Source: an uncultured Kiloniellales bacterium
GTDB taxonomy: Bacteria; Actinomycetota; Acidimicrobiia; Spongiisociales; UBA5794
NCBI GenBank assembly: GCA_964195155.1
Contig: CAXMOP010000045.1
Span: forward strand, 23,636-87,635
DNA length: 64,000 nucleotides
Reading direction: 5' to 3'
Part shown: positions 16,098 to 53,260 of the stretch, piece after piece
How the letters are laid out: every line of letters begins with the position of its first letter
Numbering within the stretch: position 1 is the first letter of the stretch
Notes under the pieces: model-generated
What the model saw: only the letters and a program-made list of their open reading frames with translations
What the model was told of the DNA's origin: nothing
The model's database searches: none
Translations under genes and position numbers: made by a program

Positions 16098-16388
16098 ATG
16101 CCCATGCAAGCACCGATCGCGGCAACAAAGTTCACGGTCTACGGGCGGGTGCAGGGCGTCGGTTTCCGATGGTCAACCCGACGAGTTGCCGGCGAACTAG
16201 ACCTCGCAGGCTGGGCAAGAAATCGCCCGGACGGTTCGGTTGAGACATGGGCGCAGGGTTCTGCTGAGGCAATCACGCAGATGGCATCATTCCTCGAACA
16301 GGGGCCCGCCGGCGCTCGAGTCGCGGCTGTTAAGGCTGAACAGGTTGAACCCGACCATCTGCTCGAAGGTTTCCAGATCCTCTTTTGA
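16098..16388 (+). CDS. Acylphosphatase
   Basis: VYGRVQGVGFRWSTRRVAGELDLAGWARNRPDGSVE matches acylphosphatase signatures 1 and 2. Confidence 0.8.
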   Translation: MPMQAPIAATKFTVYGRVQGVGFRWSTRRVAGELDLAGWARNRPDGSVETWAQGSAEAITQMASFLEQGPAGARVAAVKAEQVEPDHLLEGFQILF

Positions 16389-16403
16389 CTCGCGACTCGC
16401 GAC

Positions 16404-16739
16404 TCAGAGGTGCTCGTTGATCTGCACGGGGGTTCCGTCGGGATCCTCCAGCACGATCGAGCGGCCGAAGGTCTCGTCGGCAATCCCTCTCGCCGGCTGG
16501 ATGCCGTGGTCGGCGAGGCGCAGTACGACCGCCTCGAGGGGCTCGGCGGTCACCAGGGACAGCTCCACACGACCCCGCTGTGGCGAATTCTCGACGCTAT
16601 GCACCCCGAGCGTTGCCCCACCGACATCGAACGCGGTCCACATGTCGGACTCAATGGTTGGCTTCGATCCGATCACATGGCCGTACCACTCGACGGCGGC
16701 TTCGGTGTTGCCGGTGTAGATGATTGGCTGCAGTTTCAC
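16404..16739 (-). CDS. VOC (glyoxalase/bleomycin-resistance) family protein
   Basis: 111 aa. GTG start, overlapping the upstream small ORF's stop (GTGA). Confidence 0.65.
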   Translation of the reverse strand: MKLQPIIYTGNTEAAVEWYGHVIGSKPTIESDMWTAFDVGGATLGVHSVENSPQRGRVELSLVTAEPLEAVVLRLADHGIQPARGIADETFGRSIVLEDPDGTPVQINEHL

Positions 16740-16885
16740 TTCCGCTCCTTCTCGCTCAGATAGGCCTCGAGGGCGTCGGCTACGAAATCGGACAGTCGCT
16801 GTTCCGCTTCGATGGCGGCGTGCTTGACTCGCTTGATGAGCGGCTCGACCAAGTAAACATTGAATTGTTTCTTCTCTTCGGGCAT
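16736..16885 (-). CDS. Putative ribbon-helix-helix (CopG/Arc-like) small protein, 49 aa
   Basis: Encodes MPEEKKQFNVYLVEPLIKRVKHAAIEAEQRLSDFVADALEAYLSEKERK, a beta-strand (FNVYL) followed by two helices. Its stop is coupled to the VOC start. Palindromic ctagtgtgttagtgttctag lies upstream. Confidence 0.4.
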   Translation of the reverse strand: MPEEKKQFNVYLVEPLIKRVKHAAIEAEQRLSDFVADALEAYLSEKERK

Positions 16886-17041
16886 TTTGCTAGTGTGTTA
16901 GTGTTCTAGCATCTTGTCAAGGGACACCATGTCACTGGATTCCGCACCGGTGGTGTCGTTCATTGCGACCACGGACGCCGAGCTGGTTCCTGGACCCTGC
17001 TGACAACATCCTGTCGATCACTCAGCGCGGCTGATAAACAC

Positions 17042-18295
17042 TCAATCCGTGTGCACGTCCCTCGTCATGATGTCCGACAGCCCTTCGACAAAGTCTGACG
17101 TCGTGCCGAGCAGATCTGATCCCGGCCCAATCGCCCTGTTGCCGAACTTCTCCCGGAGCGCATCCACCGCCTCGTCGAGGGCTTGAAGCTCGAGCTCCTT
17201 GGGGTTGCCCGGCGATGCTTCCTCGTCGTCCACATCCAGCTCGAGCTGGAGCGCGGCACCTCGCTCCAGATTTGAGACGGAGATGCCGAGCAGGTTGAGG
17301 CCGCGATCGGGGTGATCGTCCAGGACCTTGTCGACCAGCCCCGACCCGGTTCGGTAGAGCACGGCGCTCGACGCAGTTGCGGCGCGGAGCGTCTTCGACC
17401 TGGTCACCGAGGCCATGTCGGTGAACCGTGCCCGGACGGTCATGGTTCGGCCACGCCGCCCCTTGTTCCGGAGCCGCGCCCCGACCCGCGATGAGAGCCG
17501 AGCAATCACGGCCTTGAGCTCGTCGGGGTCGCGGTGGTCTCCACCGAATGCACTCTGAGAGCCGACCGAGGAGGCGCGGCGGCTGGTCTCGACCATGCGG
17601 GCGTCGTTGTTCATCGACAGGGCCCGGAGCTGTGCGGCCTTCGCCCGGCCAACACGATCGGTGAGCATCCGCTCCGAGGTCGCCGAAATATCTCCGATCG
17701 TGGTGATCCCGAGGCTGGCCAACGCCTCCTGGGTAACCGGTCCAACCCCCCAGAGCCGTCCGACCGGCAGTGGATGGAGAAACGCGACCTCAGAGCCGGG
17801 CTCCACCACAATGAGCCCGTCGGGTTTCGCCACCTGGCTGGCGATCTTCGCCAGAAACTTCGTCGGTGCCGCACCCACCGAAACCGGAAGCTTGGTCTGC
17901 TCGCGTACCCGTCTGCGAATACTCTTCCCGATCTCTTCCGGCGTGCCGAACAGGTGCGTCGACCCCGAGACGTCGAGGAACGCCTCGTCGATCGACAACG
18001 GCTCGACGACCGGAGTGAACTCGCGGAATACCTCGAAGACGCGGTCCGAGTATTCGACGAACTCGCCGAATTCGCTGTCGAGGACGATGAGCGTTGGACA
18101 CAACTTGCGCGCCTGCCCGAGCGGCATCGCACTGCGAACACCCATCGCCCGTGCCTCGTAGGTACACGAGAGCACCACGCCACCACCGACGGCTACCGGC
18201 TTCCCGATCAGGTGCGGCGCCTTGAGCAAGGCAACGGACGCGTAGAACGCGTCGAGATCAGCATGCAGGATCGTCGGCCCGTCGGCGCGCCTCAT
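17042..18295 (-). CDS. dinB: DNA polymerase IV (Y-family)
   Basis: ILHADLDAFYASVA, catalytic SIDEAFLDV, HhH-like region. Confidence 0.85.
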   Translation of the reverse strand: MRRADGPTILHADLDAFYASVALLKAPHLIGKPVAVGGGVVLSCTYEARAMGVRSAMPLGQARKLCPTLIVLDSEFGEFVEYSDRVFEVFREFTPVVEPLSIDEAFLDVSGSTHLFGTPEEIGKSIRRRVREQTKLPVSVGAAPTKFLAKIASQVAKPDGLIVVEPGSEVAFLHPLPVGRLWGVGPVTQEALASLGITTIGDISATSERMLTDRVGRAKAAQLRALSMNNDARMVETSRRASSVGSQSAFGGDHRDPDELKAVIARLSSRVGARLRNKGRRGRTMTVRARFTDMASVTRSKTLRAATASSAVLYRTGSGLVDKVLDDHPDRGLNLLGISVSNLERGAALQLELDVDDEEASPGNPKELELQALDEAVDALREKFGNRAIGPGSDLLGTTSDFVEGLSDIMTRDVHTD

Positions 18296-18419
18296 GCGGA
18301 GATCATGTCACGCCCGTGTGACAGAACTTCCCTCTTTCGTCGATCGAATCATGGTCAAGTGCGAGCACAGCGTCGGTCGATGGACCAGAATCGACGCCGT
18401 GCCAGCCAGAATCGACACC

Positions 18420-18809
18420 ATGCCAGCCAGATTCGACGCCCTGGGAATTGTCGTCTCGGACATGGCTGCGTCGCTCACCTTCTATCGCCAACTCGGTCTC
18501 GAGTTCAGCGACGACGCGTCCGGCGAAGGCCACCTCGAAGCCACCCTTCCCGGCGGAACACGACTGATGCTCGACACCGAGGAAGTCATGGCCTCCTTCG
18601 ACCCCACGTTCCAGGCTCCCACCGGGGCAGGGCGGATCAGCCTGGCGTTTCACTGCGACTCGCCATCCGATGTCAACGGGCTGTATGCGGCCATGGTCGA
18701 TGCCGGCTACACCGGGGAGCGGGAGCCGTTCGACGCCTTCTGGGGCCAGCGGTACGCGACGGTGCTGGATCCCGATGGCAATGTCGTGGACCTGTTCGCC
18801 GTTCTGTGA
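18420..18809 (+). CDS. VOC/glyoxalase family protein
   Basis: FDALGIVVSDMAASLTFYRQLGLEF and C-terminal GNVVDLF. The start is moved to an internal ATG so it does not overlap dinB. Confidence 0.55.
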   Translation: MPARFDALGIVVSDMAASLTFYRQLGLEFSDDASGEGHLEATLPGGTRLMLDTEEVMASFDPTFQAPTGAGRISLAFHCDSPSDVNGLYAAMVDAGYTGEREPFDAFWGQRYATVLDPDGNVVDLFAVL

Positions 18810-18816
18810 GGCCGAC

Positions 18817-20655
18817 CTACTGCTGATAGATGTCGATTACCAGAGCGTCGTTTTCTGCAAGCACGACCTCACGCTTCACCTTGAGCGTCGGTGTCAATTG
18901 GCCGCCCTCGACGGTGAGATCCTCGGCAAGGATGCGGAACTCCCTGATCGACTCTGCCCGTGACACGGCCTCGTTAGCGCCATCGACTGCATCCTGGACT
19001 GCGGCCTCAAGGTCGGGATCGTCGATCAGCGCATCGAGCGTTGAGCTCGGTTTCTCGTTGGCGTGCGCCCAGGCGGGAAGCGCGTCCTCGTCGATCGTCA
19101 CCAGCGCCGCGATGAACGGCTGGGCGTCGCCGATGACCAGACATTGGCTGACCAGCGCCGAAGCCCGCAGCCGGTCCTCGAGCACCGCCGGTGCGACGTT
19201 CTTGCCGCCGGCGGTGATGAGGATTTCCTTCAGCCGTCCGGTGATGCGTAGATAGCCATCGGCGTCGAGTTCGCCGATGTCGCCCGAGTGGAACCAGCCA
19301 TCCGGCTCGATGGCGGCCCTCGTCGCCTCTTCGTTCCTCCAATAGTCGGCCATGACCCCGGCGCCCTTGATCATGACCTCACCGTCGTCGGCAATGCCGA
19401 TCGTGGTACCGGGGAGCGGGCGCCCGACGGTGCCGATTCTCTGCTCGTCGGTCGTGTTGATATTCGAGGCGCCCGTGGTCTCGGTGAGCCCGTACGCCTC
19501 GACGGGGGTGAGCCCGATGCCGCGGAAGAAGTGCCCGAGGCGGTTCCCGAGCGGGGCCGCGGACGAGATCGCATACACCAACTCGCCGCCGAAGACTTGG
19601 CGGAGCTTGCCATAGACCAGGCGGTCGAAAACAAAGTGCTGAGCCCTGGTGGTAAAGCCGATCCTTCCCTTGGCGATGCCCTCGGAATAGGCGATGGCCA
19701 CGTCGACGGCTCGGTCGAAGATCCCTCCCTTTCCCTCCGCATGGGCCTTCTGTACCGCTCCGTTGTACACCTTCTCAAAGACGCGGGGAACGGCGAACAG
19801 CCAGGTCGGCTTGACCATGGCCAGTTCCTCGAGCAGAGCGTCGACCGAGGATGCGTAGAAGATCTGTACCCCGGCGGCGATCGAGGTGATCTGGACGCTG
19901 CGCGAGGCAATGTGGGCGAGCGGTAGGAAGAGGAGGGTGCGCTCACCAGTTCGCATCATCGCGGGAACAGTGGCGTCGAGCTGGGCAATCCCGTAAGCCA
20001 GGTTGCCGTGGCTGAGCATCACTCCCTTGGGGCGCCCGGTTGTTCCCGAGGTGTAGACGAGGGTTGCCAGGTCACCGTGGTTGATCTCCTCGATCCGATG
20101 GTCGACTTCTGTGCGTAACAGGTCCGTTGCACCGTTGACGAGATGGTCCATCGCCCCATCGTCGATGACGAGCGCGTGTCGGCAGGCCGGCAGCTGCTCG
20201 GCAACCGTGTCGTACATGGCCTTCATCGCCTCGGTCTCACAGATCAGCACGAGGGACTCCGAGTCGCCGACGATCCATTCGAGTTGTTCGGTCGACGATG
20301 TCGGGAAGATGGTCACCGTTGCCGCTCCGGCGGCCCAGATCGCATAATCGAGAAGCGTGAACTCGTACCGGGTCGAACAGAAAATGGCCACGCGGTCGCC
20401 CTTTTGCAAACCGAGGGCCAGGAGGCCGGCCGCCAGTTCCTTGACCGTCGAGTGCATCTCACCAACGGTGATGTGCGCGAATCCGTCTCCGACGCGATAG
20501 CTCAGGGCGATACTGCCGGGATCCTCGCTTGCTCGCTTTGCCAGCAGCGAGACCGGATTATCGGTCGGGCCGATCGTCTGCTCCCCCGGTGTGGTGAAGG
20601 TGTGCACCGCTTCGCCTCTCTGTGTGCCTGAACCAGAGTGTATGGGGCCGCTCAC
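18817..20655 (-). CDS. Long-chain fatty-acid--CoA ligase (AMP-dependent synthetase)
   Basis: AMP-binding motif LVYTSGTTGRPKGVMLSHGNL, plus GYGLTET and ITGRLKEIL motifs. Confidence 0.8.
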   Translation of the reverse strand: MSGPIHSGSGTQRGEAVHTFTTPGEQTIGPTDNPVSLLAKRASEDPGSIALSYRVGDGFAHITVGEMHSTVKELAAGLLALGLQKGDRVAIFCSTRYEFTLLDYAIWAAGAATVTIFPTSSTEQLEWIVGDSESLVLICETEAMKAMYDTVAEQLPACRHALVIDDGAMDHLVNGATDLLRTEVDHRIEEINHGDLATLVYTSGTTGRPKGVMLSHGNLAYGIAQLDATVPAMMRTGERTLLFLPLAHIASRSVQITSIAAGVQIFYASSVDALLEELAMVKPTWLFAVPRVFEKVYNGAVQKAHAEGKGGIFDRAVDVAIAYSEGIAKGRIGFTTRAQHFVFDRLVYGKLRQVFGGELVYAISSAAPLGNRLGHFFRGIGLTPVEAYGLTETTGASNINTTDEQRIGTVGRPLPGTTIGIADDGEVMIKGAGVMADYWRNEEATRAAIEPDGWFHSGDIGELDADGYLRITGRLKEILITAGGKNVAPAVLEDRLRASALVSQCLVIGDAQPFIAALVTIDEDALPAWAHANEKPSSTLDALIDDPDLEAAVQDAVDGANEAVSRAESIREFRILAEDLTVEGGQLTPTLKVKREVVLAENDALVIDIYQQ

Positions 20656-20883
20656 TACCGTGTCGTCATGGACGGCATCGACATATTCGACCTCAATCGA
20701 CTGCTCGTCCTGATGCTGCTGGCGATCGGCCTTGCCCTCGTCGCCGGGAACGGTTTCGCCATTCTGCAGGCGCGACGGGGCCGCAAGCCAAAGGACGAGG
20801 CAGGCGAGTTCAGGCCGGCCAGGGCGTGGTGGCTGTTCGGAGTCGGCCTGGTGATGACCGTCTGGGGCCTGGCCAGCCTGTGA
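20638..20883 (+). CDS. Hypothetical small membrane protein
   Basis: Two TM segments (LVLMLLAIGLALVAG and WWLFGVGLVMTVWGLA). Start uncertain. Confidence 0.3.
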   Translation: MYGAAHYRVVMDGIDIFDLNRLLVLMLLAIGLALVAGNGFAILQARRGRKPKDEAGEFRPARAWWLFGVGLVMTVWGLASL

Positions 20884-20886
20884 ACC

Positions 20887-20938
20887 GTTCTTGCGTAGCA
20901 GACGGCCATATATCGCTCCTGGCTACGCAAGAACGGGA
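20887..20938. terminator. Perfect 15-bp inverted repeat hairpin (ccgttcttgcgtagc...gctacgcaagaacgg), terminator/regulatory-like
   Basis: Seen directly. A 15-bp perfect stem with a 22-nt loop lies 3' of the small ORF and upstream of tRNA-Gly. Confidence 0.4.
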
Positions 20939-20971
20939 GGGGCGGCCCCTCGCTAGCATTTGTCGACCACC

Positions 20972-21042
20972 GCGGGTGTAGTTCAATGGCAGAACATCAG
21001 CTTCCCAAGCTGAATACGGGGGTTCGATTCCCCTCACCCGCT
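20972..21042 (+). tRNA. tRNA-Gly (anticodon CCC)
   Basis: Cloverleaf: acceptor GCGGGTG/CACCCGC, D-arm GTTC..GAAC, anticodon stem TCAGC/GCTGA with loop TTCCCAA, T-arm GGGGG-TTCGATT-CCCCT. 71 nt. Confidence 0.8.
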
Positions 21043-21044
21043 CA

Positions 21045-21974
21045 ATGAGAGTTGCCGCCGCCCAAACCGCCCCCGTATGGGGAGACCCGCAGGCCACGGC
21101 CGATGTCGTGGTCGACTGGGTTCGCAAAGCCGCGGCCGACGATGTCGATCTGCTCGCTTTCGGCGAGACGTTCCTGAGCGGATACCCCTTCTGGATCGCC
21201 CGTACCGACGGAGCGCGCTTCAACGCCCCCGATCAGAAGGAGGCGTACGCTCACTACATCAACGGGGCCGTAGACGTCGACGGACCAGAGATCGAATCGA
21301 TCGCCGCCGTCGTCGCCGAGACTGGGGTGTTCACCTATCTCGGCATCACCGAGCGCTCAGCGAGCGGAGGCACGGTCTACGCCACCTACCTCGCCATCGA
21401 CCCGACCGCGGGCGTCGTCAGTGCGCATCGCAAGCTCATGCCGACCTACGAAGAGCGCATGGCGTGGGGAATCGGTGACGGCAACGGGTTGCGGACGCAT
21501 CGCGTCGCCGACTTCACGGTGTCGGGACTCAACTGCTGGGAGAACTGGGTGCCATCGGTCCGCCACGCGATGTACGCGCAGGGAACGACGCTGCACGTCG
21601 CCGCCTGGCCGGGATCGGTCCGGCTGACTGAGGACATCACACGGTTCATCGCACTCGAGGGACGTTGCTATGTGCTCTCAGCGGGAGGACTGCTGCGCGC
21701 CGAGTCGATTCCTACCGACTTCCCTCTCCGTGATGAAGCAGTTCAGCCCGGGGAGTTGCTCTTCGACGGCGGTTCCGCAATCGCTTCTCCTGACGGTTCC
21801 TGGCTCGTCGAACCGGTCGCCGGTGACGAACGGCTCGTGATCGCCGAAATCGACGCCGCCGTCGTCCGGGGCGAGCGGCAGAACTTCGACCCCGCCGGAC
21901 ACTATTTCCGCGGCGACGTCATCGAGGTGCACGTCGACCGGACGCGCCGCGACCCGGCGTCATTCACCGACTAG
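21045..21974 (+). CDS. Carbon-nitrogen hydrolase (nitrilase family)
   Basis: [14 protein letters not shown], catalytic Glu in AFGETF, catalytic Cys in LNCWENW. Confidence 0.75.
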
Positions 21975-22026
21975 GAGACTCGAGTCCGGCCGGAGCCGCG
22001 GACATCGATCGCTACCATCGCCGCCG

Positions 22027-22596
22027 ATGATCTTCTCCGACCGGACCATCCGCGAGGCCATCGAATCCGGACGCATTCGCCTCGATCCGTACGACCCCTC
22101 GTTGGTGCAGCCGTCGAGCGTCGACGTGCGCTGCGACAACCGATTCCGAGTGTTCGAGAACCACCGCTACGCGCATATCGACCCGAAATCGCCACAGGCC
22201 GATCTCACCACCGAAGTGAAGACCTCCGAGTCGGACCCGTTCATCCTCCATCCCGGCGAGTTCGTCCTCGGTGCCACCCTGGAGACGGTTGGCCTCGGGA
22301 ACGACGTCGTTGCAAGGCTCGAAGGCAAATCGTCCCTCGGTCGCCTCGGTCTGCTCATCCATTCCACGGCCGGCTTTATCGATCCGGGTTTCACCGGGCA
22401 GGTGACCCTGGAGTTGTCGAACGCGGCGAACCTGCCGATCACCATCTACCCGGGGATGAAGATCGGCCAAATCAGCTTCTACGAGATGACCACCGCCGCC
22501 GACCACCCATACGGATCGCCGGAGCTCGGGTCCAAATACCAGGGACAGAGCGGGCCGACGGCGAGCCGGATGCACAGCGACTTCGAGGAGGACTGA
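22027..22596 (+). CDS. dcd: dCTP deaminase
   Basis: [12 protein letters not shown]...[14 protein letters not shown]...[15 protein letters not shown], typical of Dcd. Confidence 0.85.
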
Positions 22597-22597
22597 G

Positions 22598-26755: not shown

Positions 26756-27031
26756 GAATCCTCCCTGTCCTCTCCTGGCCTGTTCCTCACACTGTCGCTA
26801 CCGGGTATGACAGAAACGCGTCAGACCACAGCGGGAAGTAAGGGAAGCGGAGTCAGTGTACGCGGCTCGCTCGAAGCGTTCCTCTCGGACCGCTTGATGT
26901 TTTTCGCGACGGGCCGCCGTCAACAGTCAACAGTCAACAGTCAACAGCGGGAAGGTATCGGAGAGTCGTCGCGCGTTCTGGCTGAAGACTGAAGACTGAA
27001 AGCTGAGGACTCCTTGCTGACTGACGACTTC

Positions 27032-42540: not shown

Positions 42541-43941
42541 TCAGTCTGAAGAGGACTGACCCCGGCCCCACTCGTCGAGCATCGCCAAGGCCTCTTCCTC
42601 CGAGTACGGGCCGTCTTCGATGCGCTTCTCCAACAACATGTCCATGATCTTGCCGATTTCGGGGCCGGGCTCGAGACCCAGGTATTCCATCACCTGGTTG
42701 CCGTCGATCGGCGCCCGCATGGCATCGAGCTCCTCCTGCTGGCGAAGCTCGTCGATCCGCCCCTCCAGCTCGTCGATGCGACCGGCGATCGCCCGCGCTC
42801 GTTTTTCGTTTCTCGTGGTCACGTCGCTGCGCACCAACTCGTTGAGGTCATCGAGCATCGGCCCGGCGTCCCGCACGTAGCGGCGCACCGCAGAGTCGGT
42901 CCAGCCCATCTTGTAGGTGTGCGGGCGCATGTGGAGAAACACCAGCCGCGACACGTCCTCGGTCATCGCCTTGGGATATCGGAGCTCGCTCATTCGCCGC
43001 TTGGTCAGGCGGGCCCCGACCACCTCGTGGTGGTGGAACGAGACACCGCCCGGGCCGAACTCCCTGGTGTCCGGCTTGCCGATGTCGTGGAACAATGCGG
43101 CCAGGCGGAGACGGAGTCGGGGTGACGCCTTCTCCACCACCGCAATGGTGTGGGCCAGCACGTCCTTGTGATGATGCACCGGATCGGCTTCGAGCGCCAG
43201 CGCCGGGAGCTCCGGGATGAACTCGCCGGCCAGGCCCGTGTCGACCAGCCCGGCAAGCGCAGGTCCGACGTGGTCGCCGATCAGCAACCGATCGAGCTCA
43301 CCGTTGATCCGTTCCCTCGACACGATCTCGAGCCGATCGTGCATGCCTCGCACCGCACTCATCGCGTCCTCGCTTGGTGCGAAGCCGAGCGTTGACACGA
43401 AGCGAAACAAGCGCAGCATCCGCAGCGGATCGTCGCCGAACGAGATCTCCGGGTCGAGTGGTGTGCGCAGTGTTCTGACCTGCAGGTCAGCGAGCCCACC
43501 GGTGGGATCGATCATTTCGGGCGTTGACGAACCGTCGGTCGGTATCCGCAGCGCCATGGCGTTAACCGTGAAGTCGCGGCGGGAGAGGTCTTCATCGATG
43601 TTGTCCGAGAACACCACCTCGGGCTTTCGCGAGTCGTCGTGATAGACCTCGGAGCGGAAGGTGGTGATCTCGTGCACCTGCCCGTCCTTGATGACACCGA
43701 CGGTGCCGAACTGCTTTCCGGCCAGGTAGACGTCCGAAGCCCAGGGCGCGACCAGCCGCTCGATCTCGTCCGGCCTTGCATCGGTAGCGAAGTCGAGATC
43801 GGCGATCGGACGATCGAGCAGCGCATTCCGAACGCTTCCGCCGACGAGAAAGAGGCGGTGACCGGCCTGGTCGAAGAGTGTGGCCAGCTTCCGTGCCGGC
43901 GTCCCGTCGGTGAGAACGGCCTCGAGGCGAGCCGGGATCAT
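42541..43941 (-). CDS. cca: CCA tRNA nucleotidyltransferase (HD-domain type)
   Basis: Pol-beta NT motif LFLVGGSVRNALLDRPIADLDFAT and HD motif LAALFHDIGKP. Confidence 0.8.
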   Translation of the reverse strand: MIPARLEAVLTDGTPARKLATLFDQAGHRLFLVGGSVRNALLDRPIADLDFATDARPDEIERLVAPWASDVYLAGKQFGTVGVIKDGQVHEITTFRSEVYHDDSRKPEVVFSDNIDEDLSRRDFTVNAMALRIPTDGSSTPEMIDPTGGLADLQVRTLRTPLDPEISFGDDPLRMLRLFRFVSTLGFAPSEDAMSAVRGMHDRLEIVSRERINGELDRLLIGDHVGPALAGLVDTGLAGEFIPELPALALEADPVHHHKDVLAHTIAVVEKASPRLRLRLAALFHDIGKPDTREFGPGGVSFHHHEVVGARLTKRRMSELRYPKAMTEDVSRLVFLHMRPHTYKMGWTDSAVRRYVRDAGPMLDDLNELVRSDVTTRNEKRARAIAGRIDELEGRIDELRQQEELDAMRAPIDGNQVMEYLGLEPGPEIGKIMDMLLEKRIEDGPYSEEEALAMLDEWGRGQSSSD

Positions 43942-43943
43942 GC

Positions 43944-44010
43944 CCAGTTCCCAGTTGCCAGTTGCCAGTTGCCAGTCAGAGCCGACTCGCGACTCGCGAC
44001 TCGCGACTCG
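43944..44010. repeat. Compound heptamer tandem repeat (CCAGTTG)x~5 + (CGACTCG)x4 filling the rnhA-cca intergenic
   Basis: cccagttcccagttgccagttgccagttgccagtcagagccgactcgcgactcgcgactcgcgactcg. Confidence 0.8.
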
Positions 44011-45865: not shown

Positions 45866-46876
45866 TTAACCCAGATCCCAATACGGGGCAAGGGTTTCCA
45901 CTATTTGGCTCAGGACACGGTTCGTGGGTTCTGACCCATTCGCCGGTGGTTCGGTCCCCCCCAATCCGGCGTGACCGTTCAGCGTGGCGGAAATCGATCC
46001 ACGCAAGGCGTCGAGATCGTATCCCCCCTCCAGGAAGAACACCGTTCGCTGCTTCGGAATCAGAGTGTTCAGTGCCCCCGCCATCCAGGCATAGTCGCCC
46101 TCAACCAACTCAATCTCCGCCAGGGGATCGCTGCGATGAGCGTCGTATCCTGCGCTCACCAGCATCCAATCCGGCTCGAACTGACGGATGATGGGAATGA
46201 CCACCCTGGCGAAGGCTTCGGCATACATGAGCCCATCGGCGCCTGCTCGCATCGGCAGATTCACGGTCGTACCCCGGGCAGCGCCCTGGCCGATCTCGGT
46301 GGGCAGCCCGGTGCCAGGGTAAAACGGATGCTGGTGGAGCGAGACGTAGAGAACGTCGGATTCGGCGGCAAAGATGCGCTGTGTCCCGTTGCCGTGGTGG
46401 ACATCCCAGTCGACAATGGCGACTCGCTCACCGGCCCTCGCCAGCTCGGCCGCAGTCACTGCCACGTTGTTCAACAGACAGAAGCCCATCGCCTGCCCGC
46501 GTTCGGCGTGATGACCCGGGGGTCGCATCGCCAGGAAGGCGACATCTGCCGAGTCGGACCGGAGCGAACGCACCGCGGCGGCGCCGGCCCCTGCCGCGTT
46601 CAGCGCGGCAGGCCACGAGGCGCCCACGGCGAAGGTATCGGCATCGATGGCCCCACCTCCGCCGGCGCAGAACCGCTCCAGCGCGTCGACAAATGATGCC
46701 TCGTGGACCTCGAGAAGGCTCCGGCGTTCAACAGGCTCGGCGGTGACCCGCACCACCGTCAGCGAGGACTCCTCGACGCCCTCCACCGCGGCCGATACCC
46801 GCTCGGGGCGCTCCGGGTGCTGAGGCGGACCCCGATGATCGAAACTGGAGGGGTGAGTCACCAACGCCACACGCAT
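45866..46876 (-). CDS. Histone deacetylase / acetoin utilization (AcuC) family protein
   Basis: VDWDVHHGNGTQ, the GHH-like charge relay and YEGGY-like LEGGY. Confidence 0.75.
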   Translation of the reverse strand: MRVALVTHPSSFDHRGPPQHPERPERVSAAVEGVEESSLTVVRVTAEPVERRSLLEVHEASFVDALERFCAGGGGAIDADTFAVGASWPAALNAAGAGAAAVRSLRSDSADVAFLAMRPPGHHAERGQAMGFCLLNNVAVTAAELARAGERVAIVDWDVHHGNGTQRIFAAESDVLYVSLHQHPFYPGTGLPTEIGQGAARGTTVNLPMRAGADGLMYAEAFARVVIPIIRQFEPDWMLVSAGYDAHRSDPLAEIELVEGDYAWMAGALNTLIPKQRTVFFLEGGYDLDALRGSISATLNGHAGLGGTEPPANGSEPTNRVLSQIVETLAPYWDLG

Positions 46877-46977
46877 AAGGGCAAGAGTCGAGAATCAAGA
46901 GTCGAGAGTCAAACCCGAACCGTGAACCTCGTTTCCCGCAGTACCCTCGTCGTGTCGCCGGCCAGCGTGGAGGTGCA

Positions 46978-47709
46978 ATGTCGGTCGCGGAGAGCGCCCC
47001 GCCGGTACAGGCGCGCGGTTCCTGGCCGCAGCCCATCAGGCTTCGACGCGGCTGGGCAAAGGGTGAGGCGCGGCGATGGAACGATGCAACACCCGACGCC
47101 ACCTTCCGTCTCGTCCGGGGCAGCAGAACCTTCTTGGACGCCTGCACCGAATACCTGCTTGGAATCGGCGCCCCATCCGTGCTGTCGCCGCCGCTGCCTC
47201 GTTCGTCGTCCGAGGCCTGGAAGTCGGTCGGGTATCGCGAGTTCGTCTCCCTCGCCCTCATGCGGGCCGAGCTCATTCGCCGGCCGGCAGCGCCAGACCA
47301 TGGTATCGCCAGCGGCGATGTCGACCTCGACCTGCTGTTGAGCATCGATCGGGCGGCGTTCGACGATTTCTGGCAATTCGACGAGTTCGGGCTTCGAGAA
47401 GCGATCGACGCAACATCAACGAAGGTGACACTGACAATCACTGGACCGGACGGGGTCCCGATTGCCTACGCCGTGGTCGGTCTCGGACAAGCCATCTCGT
47501 ATCTCCAGCGCCTCGCGGTGCACCCCGACTTCCAGGGAGCCGGGATGGGGCGGTCGTTGGTACGGGCTGCGCTCCGGGCGGCGCTTGGCGCGGGAGCGAG
47601 GGCGATGGTGCTCAACACCCAGCAAGACAATCAAGCAGCGATCGCCCTGTACCGCTCTGAGGGCTTCGTCGTCCAGCCCGACGGACTCGCCGTGCTGCGC
47701 AGGGAGTGA
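46978..47709 (+). CDS. GNAT family N-acetyltransferase
   Basis: LAVHPDFQGAGMGRSLVRAAL, acetyl-CoA binding motif A. Confidence 0.55.
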   Translation: MSVAESAPPVQARGSWPQPIRLRRGWAKGEARRWNDATPDATFRLVRGSRTFLDACTEYLLGIGAPSVLSPPLPRSSSEAWKSVGYREFVSLALMRAELIRRPAAPDHGIASGDVDLDLLLSIDRAAFDDFWQFDEFGLREAIDATSTKVTLTITGPDGVPIAYAVVGLGQAISYLQRLAVHPDFQGAGMGRSLVRAALRAALGAGARAMVLNTQQDNQAAIALYRSEGFVVQPDGLAVLRRE

Positions 47710-47715
47710 GCCGCC

Positions 47716-49002
47716 GTGCCCCCACGCCTCCCTGAGCGGTATCGGCTGAACGTACGTCTTGGCGCCGACGGTGACGTAGAAGAGTGGCTGGCCACCGACG
47801 AGCACCTGGAGCGGCCTGTGCTCATTCGCTTTCCGGGCCCGGCCGGATCCCGCAAGCGGATGGAGCAATTCTTGGCGTCGGTACGAGCAGCAGCGGCCAC
47901 CAATCATGCCCACGTCCAGACCGTGTTCGCCGCTGGTGAGCTCCACGGCTCGGCTTTCGCGGTATCCGAGTGGGATGGCGCGGTGACCGTCGCCGACCGT
48001 CTCCGGGCCGGTGAGACCATTCCGGTGAGCGAATACCTGCCCAATGCAGCCGGACTCGCCGAGGGCCTGGGCGCGTTCCACGCAAAGGGCGGGATACATG
48101 GGTCGATCGACACCTCGGCGATCCACTTCTCGGCAGCGCATCCGGCGCGCCTTGCCGGCTTCGGGCGAATTCCGACCACGACCAGCCAGGAAGATGACAC
48201 GGTGGCACTGGCCAACGTGTTGCGCACCGCCATCACCGGCAGCGAAAACCCCTGGGTTCAGCCCTCCCAGGTCGCTGAAGGGCTACCGCGGGCAGTGGAT
48301 GAGGCGTTGACCGCCGCAGCGGCAGGAGGCGCCGGCGCCGCCGGGCTCGCCGACTCGCTGCGAACGATCCCGTACTCGCCCAAGCCGGAGCCGACAACCT
48401 CATGGTCGCCACGCGGGCTGATCGTCTTTGCCGGAATCGTCGCCGCCATCCTCGCCGTCGCCGCGCTCGGTCTTGCCGTCGATATCGACCCCGACTCGGC
48501 GTTCCTGTATCCGGCCGCGCCGGCGGAAACCCCGACCCCCGCACCGGACACCACCATCCCGGTCGTCGAGGATCCGGTCAACGAGTCGATCAGCGCCTCG
48601 GCTACCGCATTTGATCCGCTCGGCGACGGCGCCGAAAACGACGGAGACGCTGCTGCTTCCATCGACGGAGACCAATCGACCAACTGGGAGACCGAGCGAT
48701 ACCCGGATCCCATTTCCACCACCAAGACCGGTGTCGGTCTGATCCTCACTGCTGAAGGGCCCATCTCGGTGATCGAGATCACCGGCTCGCCCGGTACCCG
48801 ATACTCGATCGGCTGGGCGAGCGAACATCTCCCAACCCCGGACGAATGGCAGATGGTCGGCACCGGGACGCTGCTCACCGGCACCACGCGTCATCAGGTA
48901 CCAAAGAGCCAAGGCGTGTGGCTTTTGTGGCTGACCAGCTTGCCCGAGCAACCGGACGGGACCTTTGCAGCGCGAATCTCCAACGTCTCAATGATTCCGT
49001 AG
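47716..49002 (+). CDS. Protein kinase-like (probable pseudokinase) membrane protein with extracellular C-terminal domain
   Basis: Degenerate kinase fold (HAKGGIHGSIDTSAIHF replaces HRDLKPxN; no GxGxxG). One TM (LIVFAGIVAAILAVAALGLAV). ~190-aa extracytoplasmic domain. GTG start. Confidence 0.5.
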   Translation: MPPRLPERYRLNVRLGADGDVEEWLATDEHLERPVLIRFPGPAGSRKRMEQFLASVRAAAATNHAHVQTVFAAGELHGSAFAVSEWDGAVTVADRLRAGETIPVSEYLPNAAGLAEGLGAFHAKGGIHGSIDTSAIHFSAAHPARLAGFGRIPTTTSQEDDTVALANVLRTAITGSENPWVQPSQVAEGLPRAVDEALTAAAAGGAGAAGLADSLRTIPYSPKPEPTTSWSPRGLIVFAGIVAAILAVAALGLAVDIDPDSAFLYPAAPAETPTPAPDTTIPVVEDPVNESISASATAFDPLGDGAENDGDAAASIDGDQSTNWETERYPDPISTTKTGVGLILTAEGPISVIEITGSPGTRYSIGWASEHLPTPDEWQMVGTGTLLTGTTRHQVPKSQGVWLLWLTSLPEQPDGTFAARISNVSMIP

Positions 49003-49012
49003 CATCCCCACA

Positions 49013-49588
49013 ATGACCGGCCGAGCCGAAGAAGACCGAGCGCTCATCCGTCGCTATCTGGGTGGCGACGTAGATGCCTTTGAGACGCTCATGGCGGCGC
49101 ATGAGCAGCGCGTTTTCTCGATCTGTCTGCGCATGTTGCGGGATCGCAACGCCGCGCTCGATGCCACTCAGGACACCTTCCTGACCGTGTTTCGCAAGGC
49201 GGATCGCTACAAGGAGCAAGCCGCCTTCAGCACCTGGCTGTATCGGGTGACCGTCAACACGTGTTACGACCACCTCAGACGCGAGAAGCGGAAACGCACC
49301 GAGCCGATGCCTGAGCACTTCGACCCGGATGATCCGCGCAGTGGCGACCCGCTCCACGCGGTCGAGTTGCGGCCCGACATCGAGGAGGCCCTCGAGCGCA
49401 TTCCACCCGAGTTCCGTGCCGCCACGATCCTGGTCGATCTCGCAGGGATGTCGCTAGAAGGGGCCGCCGATACCCTTGAGATCCCGATCGGCACGGTGAA
49501 GAGCCGGGTGTTCCGCGCCAGACGGCTGCTTGCAGAAGAGCTCGGGAACCTTGGCCCGCCTAAGAAGCATCTAAGAGAAGAGCCATGA
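49013..49588 (+). CDS. ECF RNA polymerase sigma factor (SigM-like by synteny)
   Basis: Region 2 FLTVFRKADRYKEQAAFSTWLYRVTVNTCYDHLRR. Region 4 near the C-terminus. Confidence 0.85.
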   Translation: MTGRAEEDRALIRRYLGGDVDAFETLMAAHEQRVFSICLRMLRDRNAALDATQDTFLTVFRKADRYKEQAAFSTWLYRVTVNTCYDHLRREKRKRTEPMPEHFDPDDPRSGDPLHAVELRPDIEEALERIPPEFRAATILVDLAGMSLEGAADTLEIPIGTVKSRVFRARRLLAEELGNLGPPKKHLREEP

Positions 49589-50430
49589 ACGACAACGACA
49601 TCGACCTCATCACATCGCTGATCGGCGGGGAACTCCCGGAGTCAGAGGCGGCAGCTGCGATCGCTCGCATCGGGTCCGACCCTGAACTCCGGGCGGCCCA
49701 CGACGAGCAGGTCGGAGTCGCCTCGATGCTCGGTTCCGCTCCCGTGGTCGCGATGACCGCGGAGGAGACTGCCTCGCTGCACGGATCGCTACGCACCGAG
49801 CTCCAGCTCGACGATCAGCCGGCGGCCGTGGCTGCGGCAGCGTCCGGCTGGAGCCGATGGTGGGCGCCAATGACCGGCCTCGCGGTAGCGGCAGTCGTGA
49901 TCTTCGCCATTGCCGTCCTGCCCGATGCACTCGACGGAACCGATTCTGCTGAGGTGGTGAGCGCACCTCCTCCAGAGACCACGGCGCCCGCATCCGAGCT
50001 GGATACACAGAGCACCGGCGGTGCGCTGGTCCAGCCCGAGGACGACAACACAAGCGACGCCTTTACGACCACTACCGCGGCCAGCGAGTCCGCGGCCGTC
50101 GAGGAGTTGGAGGATGCGACGATGTCGCAATACTTCATGGTGCCTCAAGCCGCACGAGCAAGCGAGCTCGAGCTGCCGATCCTCGAAGAGACTGCGGTTG
50201 CCGCCTCCGGCTTCGACAGCGCGCTAGGCCTGGCAACCGAATCGGCGAGGGTCAACGTCGCTGCGCTCACGGCGTGCTTTCCCGGCGGCGCTGCGGGCAG
50301 CGCACTCGACCCCATTGGGGTTACCCCGGATCTTTCTGTGGTGTACGCAATCGCAACCGACATCGAAACCGGATTCGAAACATCGGTAACGATCGACTTG
50401 TCTAGCTGTGAAATAGCAGAAGCCGGCTGA
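49585..50430 (+). CDS. Putative anti-sigma factor (membrane, Ala-rich)
   Basis: ATGA overlap with the sigma gene. Single TM (GLAVAAVVIFAIAVL). Confidence 0.5.
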   Translation: MNDNDIDLITSLIGGELPESEAAAAIARIGSDPELRAAHDEQVGVASMLGSAPVVAMTAEETASLHGSLRTELQLDDQPAAVAAAASGWSRWWAPMTGLAVAAVVIFAIAVLPDALDGTDSAEVVSAPPPETTAPASELDTQSTGGALVQPEDDNTSDAFTTTTAASESAAVEELEDATMSQYFMVPQAARASELELPILEETAVAASGFDSALGLATESARVNVAALTACFPGGAAGSALDPIGVTPDLSVVYAIATDIETGFETSVTIDLSSCEIAEAG

Positions 50431-50458
50431 ATCGCACGGCTGACTAACCTCGCCCTCC

Positions 50459-50764
50459 ATGACCGATCGCGATCCAGACTATCCGACCCAGATCGCCGAG
50501 TTCCTGGAAGAGCTGGCGGTCAAGATCCGCTCGATGACGGTTGATCGGGCCGAGAGCGCGGTCACGTGGACCGCCCTGGGAATCATGTTGGCGATCATCT
50601 TGCTCCTGGGCATCATCTGGCTGCTCGTCGGCTTCTTCCGGGCGTTCGGAGCGCTCGTCGGCCAGGAAGTCGCCTACGCGATCACCGGGGGCATATTGAT
50701 CGTCGTGGGTGCGTTGCTATGGATGCGTAGATTCCCTGCCGACGACGCCGGGAGCGAGGAATGA
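50459..50764 (+). CDS. Hypothetical small membrane protein
   Basis: Two TM helices. Overlaps the trxB start (ATGA). Confidence 0.4.
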   Translation: MTDRDPDYPTQIAEFLEELAVKIRSMTVDRAESAVTWTALGIMLAIILLLGIIWLLVGFFRAFGALVGQEVAYAITGGILIVVGALLWMRRFPADDAGSEE

Positions 50765-51684
50765 CCGAGAAGATTCTGATCATCGGATCCGGGCCCGCAG
50801 GGCTTACCGCAGCGATCTATGCGGCGCGTGCCGACCTCGCCCCACTGATGATCGAGGGCTATGAACGCGGCGGACAGCTCATGCTGACGACCGACGTCGA
50901 GAACTACCCCGGATTCCCCGACGGCATCATGGGTCCCGACCTGATCGAGTCGTTCCGCAAGCAGGCTGAGCGATTCGGAACCAGGATCATCTCGTCAGAC
51001 GTCACGAGGGTCGACCTCTCGGAACGCCCGTTCAAAGTGTGGGTCGGCGAGGACCCCTACGAGGCGGAGACACTGATCGTTTCCACCGGGGCAGCGGCCC
51101 GCTGGCTCGATGTTCCCGGTGAGACACGGCTCCGCGGTTACGGCGTTTCCGCATGCGCAACGTGCGACGGGTTCTTCTTCCGCGACAAGACGCTTGCGGT
51201 CATCGGCGGCGGCGACAGCGCGATGGAAGAGGCGATCTTCCTGACCAAGTTCGCCAGCAAGGTGACAATCATCCACCGGCGAGATCAATTCCGGGCGTCG
51301 AAGATCATGTCGCAGCGGGCGATCGACCACGAGAAAATCGAGGTGATGTGGAACTCCGCGGTCGAGGAGGTACTCGGTGACGACCTGGTGACCGGGGTCC
51401 GAGTCAGGAACGTGGAGACGGATGAGGAGTCCACGCTCGACGTCGATGGTGTCTTCCTCGCTATCGGCCACGATCCGAATACGGGTGTCTTTCGAGACCA
51501 GCTCGAGTTGGACAAAGCCGGCTATATCGTCACCGATCCCGACACGACCATGACCTCGGTGGAAGGCGTGTTCGCCGCCGGCGATGTGGTCGATCACGTA
51601 TATCAACAGGCGGTAACTGCAGCCGGACAAGGGTGCGAGGCCGCGCTCGACGCCGAGCGTTGGTTGGAATCCAGGGAAATTTGA
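50761..51684 (+). CDS. trxB: Thioredoxin-disulfide reductase
   Basis: IIGSGPAGLTAAIYAAR, redox CATCDGFFF, NADPH site GGGDSAMEEA. Confidence 0.9.
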   Translation: MTEKILIIGSGPAGLTAAIYAARADLAPLMIEGYERGGQLMLTTDVENYPGFPDGIMGPDLIESFRKQAERFGTRIISSDVTRVDLSERPFKVWVGEDPYEAETLIVSTGAAARWLDVPGETRLRGYGVSACATCDGFFFRDKTLAVIGGGDSAMEEAIFLTKFASKVTIIHRRDQFRASKIMSQRAIDHEKIEVMWNSAVEEVLGDDLVTGVRVRNVETDEESTLDVDGVFLAIGHDPNTGVFRDQLELDKAGYIVTDPDTTMTSVEGVFAAGDVVDHVYQQAVTAAGQGCEAALDAERWLESREI

Positions 51685-51735
51685 TAGGCCGATTGCGGTT
51701 GCAGTAGGACCGGCCGCCAACAAGGAGGAACCCGA

Positions 51736-52062
51736 ATGGGCCAGAACACGACCGAAGCCACCGATGCCACCCTCGCGGGGCTCGTCGCCGAATCCACCCC
51801 CACCCTGGTGGACTTCTGGGCGGAGTGGTGCGGACCGTGCAAGATGATGGAAGGACCGCTCGACGAACTCGCCGGAGAACAGGCGGGAAAGCTGAACGTC
51901 TTGAAGCTCAACGTCGACGAAAACCAGTCGACCGCGATGGAATATGGTGTGATGAGCATCCCGACCATGATCGTGTTCCAGGACGGCCAGGAAAAAAAGC
52001 GCCTCGTAGGAGCCCGCAGCCGCAGCCAACTCGAATCCGAGCTGTCTGAGTTCGTTGGCTAG
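51736..52062 (+). CDS. trxA: Thioredoxin
   Basis: WAEWCGPCKMM active site. Confidence 0.9.
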   Translation: MGQNTTEATDATLAGLVAESTPTLVDFWAEWCGPCKMMEGPLDELAGEQAGKLNVLKLNVDENQSTAMEYGVMSIPTMIVFQDGQEKKRLVGARSRSQLESELSEFVG

Positions 52063-52117
52063 CTTTCTCGCAGCCAGCTTTCTCGTGCCGACGTCCCCCG
52101 GTGGCTAACTTCACGGT

Positions 52118-53092
52118 GTGAGGCAGTACCACGTTGGAGACCGCGGCGAGCCGATTCGCGACATCCAGCACCGTCTCAACCTCCTCGGCCACGACACCGA
52201 CCCGGATCCGCTGGGGACCTTCGGCGACGGGACCGGGCACGCCGTCACCGACTTCCAGCGGTCTCGTGGCATCCATGCCGACGGGATCGTCGGCGACCAT
52301 ACCTGGCAATCCCTGGTAGACGCCGGCTACGGCCTCGGTGACCGGATGCTCTACCGGCGTGTGCCGCTGATGCGCGGTGACGATATCTCCGCATTGCAGC
52401 AGGCGTTGAACTCGCTCGGTTTCGACGCCGGCAAGGTCGATGGGTTGTTCGGGCCGGAATCCCTTGCCGCAGTTCTGGACTTTCAACACAACCGTGGCAT
52501 GGCAGAGGACGGGATCGTGGGCACCGCCGTCGCCGCGGAGCTGACGCTGATGCAGCGAGAGACCTCGAAGCGGGGTCGGGAGGCGGTGCGGGAACAGGCC
52601 TGGATTGCGTCGCTCCCCCAACCGATCGCCGGTGCTCGCGTCTATCTCGACCCGGCGTGGGACGACCAGGGAGCCGCAGGGATCTGGGAGACCGCCATGG
52701 CCGCAGCCGGCGCCCTTCGCCGCGCCGGCGCCATGCCGCTGTTGTCGCGCAGCATCGACACCTACCCCGACGAACATGTCCGCGCCAGGCGGGCGAACCG
52801 ACTTGATGCCGATCTCGTGGCTTCGTTCGAAATAGCCAAGTCTTCCGATGCGGGCGTTTTCTACTTCGGAACCGACCGATCCTCGAGCCCGGCGGGACGG
52901 CTCCTCGCCGAATCACTCGGTCGCCGACTCGACATGAGCGTGGAAGCGAGAGCGACGCCGATCCTCCGCGAAACCCGTTCGCCCGCAGTGGTCGTCGCCG
53001 TTGCGCGGGCAACCGAGGAGGCCGGGATCGTGCTGGCCGAGGTGATCGAACAGCTCTACCTGCACGGGGTCCCTGAGCGGCTCCGTAAATAG
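52118..53092 (+). CDS. cwlM: N-acetylmuramoyl-L-alanine amidase (CwlM-like; two PG-binding domains + amidase_3)
   Basis: Two PG_binding_1 repeats (VTDFQRSRGIHADGIVGDHTW and VLDFQHNRGMAEDGIVG). The C-terminus is amidase_3-like. Synteny with trxBA. Confidence 0.7.
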   Translation: MRQYHVGDRGEPIRDIQHRLNLLGHDTDPDPLGTFGDGTGHAVTDFQRSRGIHADGIVGDHTWQSLVDAGYGLGDRMLYRRVPLMRGDDISALQQALNSLGFDAGKVDGLFGPESLAAVLDFQHNRGMAEDGIVGTAVAAELTLMQRETSKRGREAVREQAWIASLPQPIAGARVYLDPAWDDQGAAGIWETAMAAAGALRRAGAMPLLSRSIDTYPDEHVRARRANRLDADLVASFEIAKSSDAGVFYFGTDRSSSPAGRLLAESLGRRLDMSVEARATPILRETRSPAVVVAVARATEEAGIVLAEVIEQLYLHGVPERLRK

Positions 53093-53233
53093 GGGGCGAT
53101 GCGCTCGCCGCAGGTGGTGCATTTGCTGAGCCGGGGCCCGAGCGGCCTGCGCCATGTTTGTTGGGCGGCTCGCCGGGGCTCGCCGCCTGACTGCGTGATC
53201 GCGACAGAGCTAGTCGAAAGCAATTCAGTCGGG

Positions 53234-53260
53234 CTCGCGACTCGCGACTCGCGACTCTCG
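53234..53260. repeat. Heptamer tandem repeat (CTCGCGA)x3 in the cwlM-parB convergent intergenic, flanked by ~27-bp direct repeats at 53124-53150 and 53264-53290
   Basis: gggctcgcgactcgcgactcgcgactctcg. The direct repeats are tgctgagccggggcccgagcggcctgc and tgcctgagcccgggcccgagcggcctgc. Confidence 0.7.

Follow-up and report, generated by a model that had tools for sequence, protein, structure and literature searches.

Heptanucleotide tandem arrays in intergenic gaps of an uncultured actinomycetotal genome and their probable origin as slippage-driven repeats

Short tandem arrays composed of seven-nucleotide units were identified in a 64-kb stretch of DNA (64,000 nucleotides; contig CAXMOP010000045.1 of assembly GCA_964195155.1), referred to in the following as the window, which originates from an uncultured bacterium of the GTDB lineage Actinomycetota. 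The window was analyzed by means of Tandem Repeats Finder (TRF) and by a separate exact-run scan with a cut-off of at least 2.7 copies, for which 100 dinucleotide-preserving shuffles served as the null; the gene context was taken from Pfam scans and from the gene calls attached to public contigs. Seven TRF arrays were found in five intergenic gaps and none of them is coding, with at least 77% of the window being coding. An earlier examination of the DNA letters alone (the sequence-only reading) had named these sites, had described them as non-coding, and had proposed a gene context for them. All of the sites were recovered within one to three bases of the positions originally given, the non-coding location held for all seven arrays, and the gene context agreed with the Pfam scans and the public gene calls. 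The arrays are as follows:

16387-16405, no strand assigned: site 1, (GACTCGC) × 2.7, 100% matches in TRF, also recovered by the exact-run scan
26919-26947, minus strand: site 2a, (TGTTGAC) × 4.1 on the sense strand (GTCAACA in TRF), 100% matches in TRF
26982-27011, minus strand: site 2b, degenerate (TCTTCAG) × approximately 4 (CTGAAGA × 4.3 in TRF), 78% matches in TRF
43944-43976, minus strand: site 3a, (CAACTGG) × 4.7 on the sense strand (CCAGTTG in TRF), 96% matches in TRF
43983-44010, minus strand: site 3b, (CGAGTCG) × 4.0 on the sense strand (CGACTCG in TRF), 100% matches in TRF
46884-46910, no strand assigned: site 4, degenerate AGAGTCG/AGAATCA/AGAGTCG/AGAGTCA, × 3.9, 80% matches in TRF
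53234-53257, no strand assigned: site 5, (CTCGCGA) × 3.4, belonging to the CGACTCG unit family, 100% matches in TRF

Site 1 takes up all of the 15 nt that separate two convergent stop codons and extends into each of them, these being the stop codons of an acylphosphatase gene (plus strand, 16386-16388) and of a glyoxalase-family gene (minus strand, 16404-16406) as classified by Pfam. The two arrays of site 2 are located 35 nt apart in the 276-nt rplI-dnaB gap of the minus-strand rpsF-ssb-rpsR-rplI-dnaB operon and are partly inverted-complementary via a CAGTC/GACTG core. Together, the arrays of site 3 fill the 73-nt gap between rnhA and cca, site 3b beginning 5 nt past the rnhA stop codon and site 3a ending 2 nt short of the cca start codon (ATG at 43941). 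Site 4 resides in the divergent gap between a deacetylase gene and a GNAT gene, upstream of both start codons, at a distance of 7 nt from the ATG of deacetylase (46876, minus strand) and of 68 nt from that of GNAT (46978, plus strand), and site 5 is found between the convergent genes for a peptidoglycan-binding protein (ending at 53092) and parB (ending at 53357).

Rotations or the complement of CGACTCG were detected exactly at 16387-16405, 43983-44010, and 53234-53257, and in degenerate form at 46884-46910, confirming the recurrence of the CGACTCG/CGAGTCG unit at four loci that the sequence-only reading had described. The remaining units of the window are GTCAACA, CTGAAGA, and CCAGTTG, and at least four unrelated units co-occur in the genome. 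The units are contiguous, without the spacers between repeats that mark CRISPR arrays, and no GGG, as needed for a G-quadruplex, is present in any of the window unit sequences. An Rfam scan of the window returned a single tRNA and no match at the arrays.

Six exact arrays of period 7 were recorded in the window by the exact-run scan, compared with a mean of 0.01 and a maximum of one in the shuffled sequences, corresponding to an approximately 600-fold excess that is restricted to this single period. Exact arrays of period 5, 6, and 8-15 were absent from the 64 kb, and the three arrays of period 4 were at expectation (5.3 expected). The excess is therefore specific for period 7 and does not represent general low complexity. 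The phenomenon is real and statistically strong, and the arrays are more frequent than composition predicts, the opposite having been named beforehand as an outcome that would reduce them to incidental sequence. Two weak period-7 TRF rows within cca (42798-42816 and 43797-43816) do not exceed chance and lie outside the phenomenon.

Copy numbers were compared between assemblies chosen for encoding an identical neighbouring protein; the L-numbers used in the following designate public contig loci. The (TGTTGAC)n array upstream of dnaB comprises four copies in the window and in L199, three copies in L200, and seven copies in L201, and approximately 300 nt around the array are otherwise base-for-base identical between these alleles. 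Site 2b, the (TCTTCAG)n partner of this array, was unchanged in the strains in which site 2a varied. At site 1, (GAGTCGC)n was found with 2.7 copies in the window, L212, and L216, with 3.7 copies in L215 and L217, with 6.7 copies in L211 and L213, and with at least seven copies in L214; these alleles share identical flanks, and both stop codons are kept. Two of the five loci thus differ by whole 7-nt units only between otherwise identical assemblies, so that the (TGTTGAC)n and (GAGTCGC)n arrays are genuine variable-number tandem repeats (VNTRs). This bears out the slipped-strand or VNTR-like nature suggested by the sequence-only reading, for which invariant copy numbers between strains had been named as the adverse outcome. 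The arrays sized across complete assemblies were at most 49 nt long and hence shorter than a sequencing read, which makes mis-sizing by the assembly process unlikely. Six assemblies, GCA_964194755.1 among them, encode an identical cca protein, and the arrays of site 3 (rnhA-cca) and site 4 (deacetylase) were identical in six assemblies, as was the site 5 array at parB in four other assemblies. Three more contigs terminate within the (TGTTGAC)n array upstream of dnaB, and in total five independent short-read contigs (L202-L204, L214, and L218) end inside the two polymorphic arrays, which suggests that length heterogeneity within samples breaks the assemblies at these positions.

When metagenome contigs were scanned for the cca protein, 80 loci featuring amino-acid identities of 64-81% were obtained. 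In most of these loci there is no rnhA-cca gap, the rnhA stop codon overlapping the cca start codon or being located within approximately 25 nt of it. A gap was detected only in the closest relatives (74-81% amino-acid identity), where it is made of heptamer arrays with other units:

L119 (81% amino-acid identity), rnhA-cca gap: CAGAGTC × 4 and a degenerate array orthologous to CAACTGG
L122, rnhA-cca gap: CAGAGTC × 4 and inverted TCTCGAC × 4
L121 and L128, rnhA-cca gap: CGCGAGT × 4-5 adjoining the ATG
L123-L125, rnhA-cca gap: GCGAGTA variants
L131, rnhA-cca gap: GAACAGC × 4 and inverted GGCTGTC × 4
L130, rnhA-cca gap: GCAGCTT × 3

Since orthologous sites carry other units or lack the gap altogether, the arrays are young and represent recent insertions or expansions with a fast turnover and not conserved elements. 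Units of the CGACTCG family occur at several loci in the relatives L121, L128, L129, L142, L119, and L122. The loci L131 and L133 are 97.2% identical and are distinguished by two indels of exactly 21 nt (three units), one in each arm of an inverted pair formed by (GAACAGC)n and (GGCTGTC)n (L131 4880-5000 versus L133 40-128); either both arms changed in concert, or a very unlikely coincidence occurred. In the deacetylase leader, the window, L119, and L126 share a degenerate NGACTCT array, in place of which more distant relatives feature a GGAG Shine-Dalgarno-like motif. Correspondingly, no Shine-Dalgarno-like sequence was found where the arrays adjoin the start codons of cca and deacetylase (window positions 43942-43960 and 46877-46883), whereas relatives without arrays at these starts possess GGAG 5-10 nt upstream. 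In total, 23 arrays of period 7 were counted in the 80 cca loci, as opposed to at most three at the other periods compared. Their density amounts to one per 8.6 kb in the 16 closest loci and one per 38 kb in the other 64, i.e., it is approximately four times higher in the former, the value of 8.6 kb being inflated because these 16 loci were picked around the rnhA-cca gap itself.

Beyond the relatives, an exact (CGACTCG)x3 scan of one genome per species identified at least 112 loci covering 765 kb, a figure that stands without control heptamers. The matches listed belong to Gemmatimonadota (many), Acidobacteriota, Planctomycetota, Actinomycetota, Chloroflexota, Proteobacteria, and others. Among these matches (765 kb), 226 exact period-7 arrays were counted, 105 of which carry 75 other units, and periods 5, 6, 8, and 9 accounted for 5-14 arrays each, with at most 14 arrays for any of the periods 5, 6, and 8-12. 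The dominance of period 7 is therefore common to many phyla, as the literature likewise describes. Once the detection phase is corrected for, array lengths show a monotonic decay, which is what slippage of a birth-death type would produce. A preference for approximately four copies, which has been described for Xanthomonas and Geobacter and was indicated here by a mode of the CGACTCG arrays at 25-28 nt, disappeared when the phase-dependent detection of the fixed 21-mer was corrected for and was rejected. Likewise, no enrichment in one type of gap could be concluded from a crude GC3-based gene caller: 73 arrays were assigned to tandem, 19 to convergent, and 20 to divergent gaps, which is near the overall gap proportions, and many of the arrays called within open reading frames (ORFs) by this caller are 5'-extension artefacts just upstream of real start codons.

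The data do not support a universal preference for CGACTCG, since in viral contigs this heptamer was found at one locus, compared with 39 loci for the composition-matched control CCGTCAG and four each for two palindromic controls. The 39 loci of this arbitrary control (L220-L258; e.g., L224 7632-7715 and L256 3968-4051), some of which comprise at least 12 copies, indicate that heptamer arrays are common in phage-derived sequence as well.

The sequence-only reading knew of no described family matching the arrays. This view has to be revised, because over-represented intergenic heptanucleotide repeats represent a documented class (PMC4679880, PMC4692102, and PMC2700814). Heptanucleotides were described as the most over-represented long simple-sequence repeats (SSRs) in many prokaryotes by Mrazek et al. 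(2007), as far as this work is summarized in PMC4679880 and PMC4692102. According to the same summaries, the class of Mrazek, Guo and Shah is characterized by tandem 7-nt units in few copies, intergenic location, scattered phylogeny, and slippage-type length variation, all of which applies to the window; no essential difference emerges from them, apart from the host lineage (here an uncultured Actinomycetota-like marine or sediment metagenome-assembled genome, MAG) and the CGACTCG unit. The window arrays consist of approximately three or more head-to-tail copies, show the excess of period 7, are intergenic, and change in copy number by whole units. They belong to the documented heptanucleotide long-SSR class, the function and 7-nt preference of which are still unexplained. 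Neither tandem CGACTCG nor heptamer arrays from the present lineage were found in the searchable literature.

Several described systems resemble the window arrays closely. In Xanthomonas and Nostoc, the heptamer repeats GGGAATC and GGGGA(C/T)T were studied as G-quadruplex formers (PMC4692102). As in the window, one favoured heptamer per lineage is present at many intergenic sites, typically with approximately four units, and length and sequence at one site vary widely between close relatives, with occasional inverted pairs. However, the units of Xanthomonas and Nostoc are G-rich, whereas those of the window do not contain G-tracts and cannot form a G-quadruplex. The TAACTGA arrays of Beggiatoaceae, comprising 2-6 heptamers, are often located few nucleotides from a start codon and were proposed to be bound by a post-transcriptional regulator (PMC4679880). 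The window array (CAACTGG)n, 2 nt before the cca ATG, shares the AACTG core with this unit, and the position of an array at a start codon lacking a Shine-Dalgarno sequence corresponds to the association reported there. In contrast to Beggiatoaceae, only two of the five window sites adjoin a start codon, the others being located at 3' ends, and several units occur in both orientations. In Geobacter metallireducens, GGGACCG × 4 and MTYCTGA × 5 were annotated as multicopy elements and putative global regulatory sites (PMC2700814); these are likewise elements of four or five tandem heptanucleotides, some of them drawn as paired or palindromic, but their units differ and the GGGACCG elements also occur inside genes. 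Furthermore, Nostoc heptamers were described near recF and recO (bioRxiv 10.1101/2022.06.06.494920), and tandem heptanucleotide repeats of Calothrix PCC 7601 are cited in PMC4692102. Calothrix shares with the window the presence of several intergenic heptamer units per genome, whereas the host studied here is a non-cyanobacterium with a GC content of 64% and its dominant unit differs. We take the Calothrix repeats to be those named STRR, with the units CCCCAGT, TTGGTCA, and CAACAGT, in which case the window array (CAACAGT)x4 at 26919-26947 corresponds to the STRR3 unit. Given the hundreds of units seen, this identity is probably coincidental.

Taken together, the window arrays are best explained, with a probability of approximately 0.64, as heptanucleotide microsatellites or VNTRs of the known over-represented kind, which are driven by slippage, biased towards period 7, and tolerated only outside of genes. 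According to this explanation, a short proto-repeat would gain and lose complete 7-nt units through slippage of the strands while DNA is being synthesized; the whole-unit steps were observed between assemblies, and slippage is their presumable cause. The process would strongly favour 7 nt over 5, 6, 8, or 9 nt, a preference that is evident from the counts above and for which the polymerase footprint is the sole published proposal. Precedents for the class and for the slippage proposal are provided in PMC4679880, PMC4692102, and PMC2700814. The arrays were observed only outside of genes, presumably because a 7-nt step shifts the reading frame and would be removed by purifying selection in coding DNA. 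Point mutations erode the arrays, and re-amplification of variant units leads to composite or degenerate arrays and to a quick turnover of units, as the comparison of orthologous loci shows. CGACTCG is the unit favoured by this lineage, as are GGGAATC in Xanthomonas and TAACTGA in Beggiatoaceae, and such a lineage-specific favourite is a known hallmark of the class. Effects on flanking genes would be by-products, possibly involving spacing, the loss of the Shine-Dalgarno sequence before cca and deacetylase, and small hairpins at 3' ends.

Several observations weigh against this explanation. Slippage is inferred here from its expected products, no variation was seen at three of the window's five loci in the four to six assemblies available, and generic slippage does not predict that arrays of 6, 8, and 9 nt are absent from the non-coding DNA. 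Moreover, purely random seeding would not lead one to expect a single unit at four loci within 64 kb and again in relatives, so that selection or a sequence-specific factor may be involved. A further point concerns inverted partners, i.e., inverted copies scoring at least 12/14 within 150 nt, which were found for 45 of 127 non-CGACTCG arrays, compared with 3/127 in a complement-only control (Wilcoxon p = 6e-11). The excess persisted when units with at most two mismatches from CGACTCG were removed (25/72 versus 3/72 in the control, p = 6e-6). Together with the equal change of 21 nt in both arms of L131/L133, it hints at a structural constraint or a templated mechanism that goes further than simple slippage.

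These last observations also speak for a different explanation, namely that the arrays are selected extragenic hairpin elements functioning in the manner of repetitive extragenic palindromic (REP) sequences. Owing to self-complementarity or inverted pairing, they would fold into long periodic stem-loops in RNA or single-stranded DNA, serving as barriers at 3' ends, as terminators without U-tract, as processing sites of the RNase III type between cistrons, or as cruciforms. CGACTCG consists of the palindrome TCGCGA plus one base, and an array of it is complementary to itself at six of seven positions. In RNA folding compared with shuffled sequences, site 1 forms a small hairpin on both strands (z = -3.1 on the plus and -2.9 on the minus strand), and a fold of the plus strand joins the two arrays of site 3 by base pairing (z = -4.1, including G-U pairs). 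Array/inverted-array hairpins on the sense strand were predicted for L122 and L131 (z = -3.4 and -3.6), and near-perfect hairpins with heptamer arms were found in Thermoanaerobaculia, Acidobacteriota, Planctomycetota, and other MAGs; paired palindromic heptamer sites are likewise documented for Geobacter (PMC2700814) and Xanthomonas (PMC4692102). However, the inverted-partner scores of the window arrays (10-11/14) were not above the control, the folds at sites 2, 4, and 5 were no better than those of shuffled sequences (z = -1.0 for pairing of the site 2 arrays), and sense-strand pairing of the site 3 arrays is weak (z = -1.4). Pairing is not maintained at site 2, where the copy number of one arm is three, four, or seven and that of the other is fixed. 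In addition, a general quasi-palindromic character of the units had to be rejected, as self-complementarity at six of seven positions was found in 10 of 105 units, with 11-13% being expected.

Transcription termination, also proposed in the sequence-only reading, received no support: stems followed by a T-run were not found at sites 1-3, and the terminator-like matches touching arrays were limited to two weak 5-bp stems on the minus strand, at 53242-53227 (site 5) and 46918-46902 (site 4). REP sequences and the bacterial interspersed mosaic elements (BIMEs) built from them are palindromes with units of 20-40 nt that are dispersed by RAYT transposases. They share with the window arrays the nature of short, hairpin-capable multicopy sequences located after stop codons and between convergent genes, but tandem 7-nt arrays instead of 20-40-nt palindromes are present here, and hairpin potential is confined to sites 1 and 3. 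Hairpin formation is frequent in the class and possibly adds a second layer to it, but does not explain the window arrays; as their general explanation, selected hairpin elements appear unlikely.

Unlikely as well is a broader hypothesis, according to which palindromic extragenic elements exist across phyla whose two arms, or a single self-complementary array such as (CGACTCG)n, consist of 7-nt units; the arms would expand in a concerted, hairpin-templated manner by template switching in the stem, and the elements would be kept for a periodic stem-loop acting on transcripts or DNA. It is kept open by the excess of inverted partners, the identical 21-nt change in both arms of L131 and L133, and the unexplained restriction to period 7, the first two being the sole observations pointing beyond the known picture. 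The long allele in L131 folds (z = -3.6), whereas the short allele in L133 does not (z = -0.4). Heptamer structures of much greater size are found in other phyla: L084 (Acidobacteriota) contains a palindrome of approximately 200 bp between convergent genes (4180-4400), with the arms (ATTGGGG)n and (CAATCCC)n and matching unique ends, and a 13-copy (TGATGGC) array in L036 (1-252) has an inverted partner 128 nt away. At L078 4950-5150 and L117 2160-2440, composite arrays combine several related units.

Binding of regulatory proteins to tandem heptads is known from the omega repressor of plasmid pSM19035 and from the TTTTGAT repeats of the cholera toxin promoter, which are bound by ToxT or H-NS. 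A lineage-specific DNA- or RNA-binding protein reading the GAGTC/GACTC heptad would accordingly explain why one unit family recurs at four of the window's five loci and at several positions in the relatives listed above. Two arrays adjoin start codons at positions where relatives carry GGAG, which echoes the reports on Beggiatoaceae and Nostoc (PMC4679880; bioRxiv 10.1101/2022.06.06.494920). On the other hand, the unrelated units TGTTGAC, TCTTCAG, and CAACTGG are present in the same genome, close relatives carry different units at an orthologous site, the arrays point either way with respect to transcription and are found in gaps of the convergent, tandem, and divergent type, and the copy number varies freely from three to at least seven. 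Binding arrays of this kind are therefore considered quite unlikely, and a single regulator, as envisaged in the sequence-only reading, is not supported, given the four or more unrelated units of the genome and the lack of a k-mer core. Among 57 distinct unrelated units from many genomes, no 3- or 4-mer stands out, and a GACT/AGTC or GANTC (CcrM-site-like) core common to all units was rejected, with AGTC not being enriched. The most enriched tetramer of the 57 units was CTGA/TCAG (12 versus 4.8 expected, z = 3.4), a value that is marginal after approximately 136 tests; the same tetramer is contained in the published units TAACTGA and MTYCTGA.

An even less probable role of the arrays is that of phase-variation (contingency) switches, in which a change in copy number would alter promoter spacing or the 5'-UTR (untranslated region) and thereby switch the neighbouring gene. 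The hypervariable copy number at two loci and the position of two arrays (sites 3 and 4) directly upstream of start codons are in line with this possibility, and heptamer copy number has been discussed in connection with cholera toxin promoter activity. However, of the two variable arrays, one separates convergent stop codons and the other lies within an operon, 160 nt from dnaB, so that neither is in a promoter or an ORF, and the arrays adjacent to start codons were invariant. None of the window arrays is overlapped by a sigma-70-like promoter or found in an ORF or a recognisable promoter spacer. The genes next to the arrays (dnaB, rplI, rnhA, cca, parB, and the deacetylase, GNAT, acylphosphatase, and glyoxalase-family genes) include core housekeeping functions and no surface, restriction-modification, virulence, or host-interaction genes. 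The functional contingency loci envisaged from the sequence alone were thus not corroborated, and neither regulator binding, phase variation, nor termination is supported by the present evidence.

Finally, chance low-complexity sequence or an assembly artefact, conceivable in view of array lengths of 19-33 nt and of the errors in repeat size that assembly from short reads can introduce, is effectively refuted already by the approximately 600-fold excess at one period only, by the recovery of identical arrays from as many as six independent assemblies, which differ in sample and pipeline, by the length of the compared arrays, which at no more than 49 nt remains below that of a sequencing read, and by the occurrence of the same phenomenon in published isolate genomes.

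For practical purposes, the heptanucleotide arrays are usable as strain-typing (VNTR) markers for this uncultured lineage, and they cause contig breaks in its metagenome assemblies. They also provide a clean, well-controlled case for the old puzzle of why units of exactly 7 nt are favoured in prokaryotic non-coding DNA and why each lineage has a favourite unit. The orthologous series represent natural experiments, including a gap that is absent and then filled with differing units, arrays replacing a Shine-Dalgarno sequence, and two arms changing together.

With respect to the genomic surroundings, the window features the gene order trxB-trxA-(peptidoglycan-binding protein), parB-parA-gidB-jag-yidC on the opposite strand, and then dnaA-dnaN-recF, and the GC skew changes its sign at approximately 56-60 kb. 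Gene order and skew switch together indicate that the window spans the replication origin region, the order being typical of Actinomycetota. The best named match to any window protein, with 64% identity, is derived from an Actinomycetota MAG. The origin region was noted at 55863-62756, with dnaA at 58950-60356 and a gap upstream of dnaA at approximately 57.9-58.95 kb. The glyoxalase-family and DinB-like proteins had no exact database record, probably because the start codons chosen here differ from the recorded ones. Next to the gene for the DinB-like (IMS family) polymerase (17042-18295), a 21-bp tandem repeat (× 2.7, 88% matches) was detected at 18385-18440 in overlapping long ORFs; with a unit length divisible by 3 as well as by 7, it possibly encodes a seven-residue repeat. 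The highest TRF score of the window (125) was achieved by a G-rich tandem repeat of 29-30 bp (× 2.9) at 62733-62819, with the consensus GGGCGTGGTGTTAGGGGTGGGTAAATGAAA, which overlaps recF (ORF 61623-62756) by approximately its final 24 bases and runs almost up to the ORF that follows (ATG at 62821).

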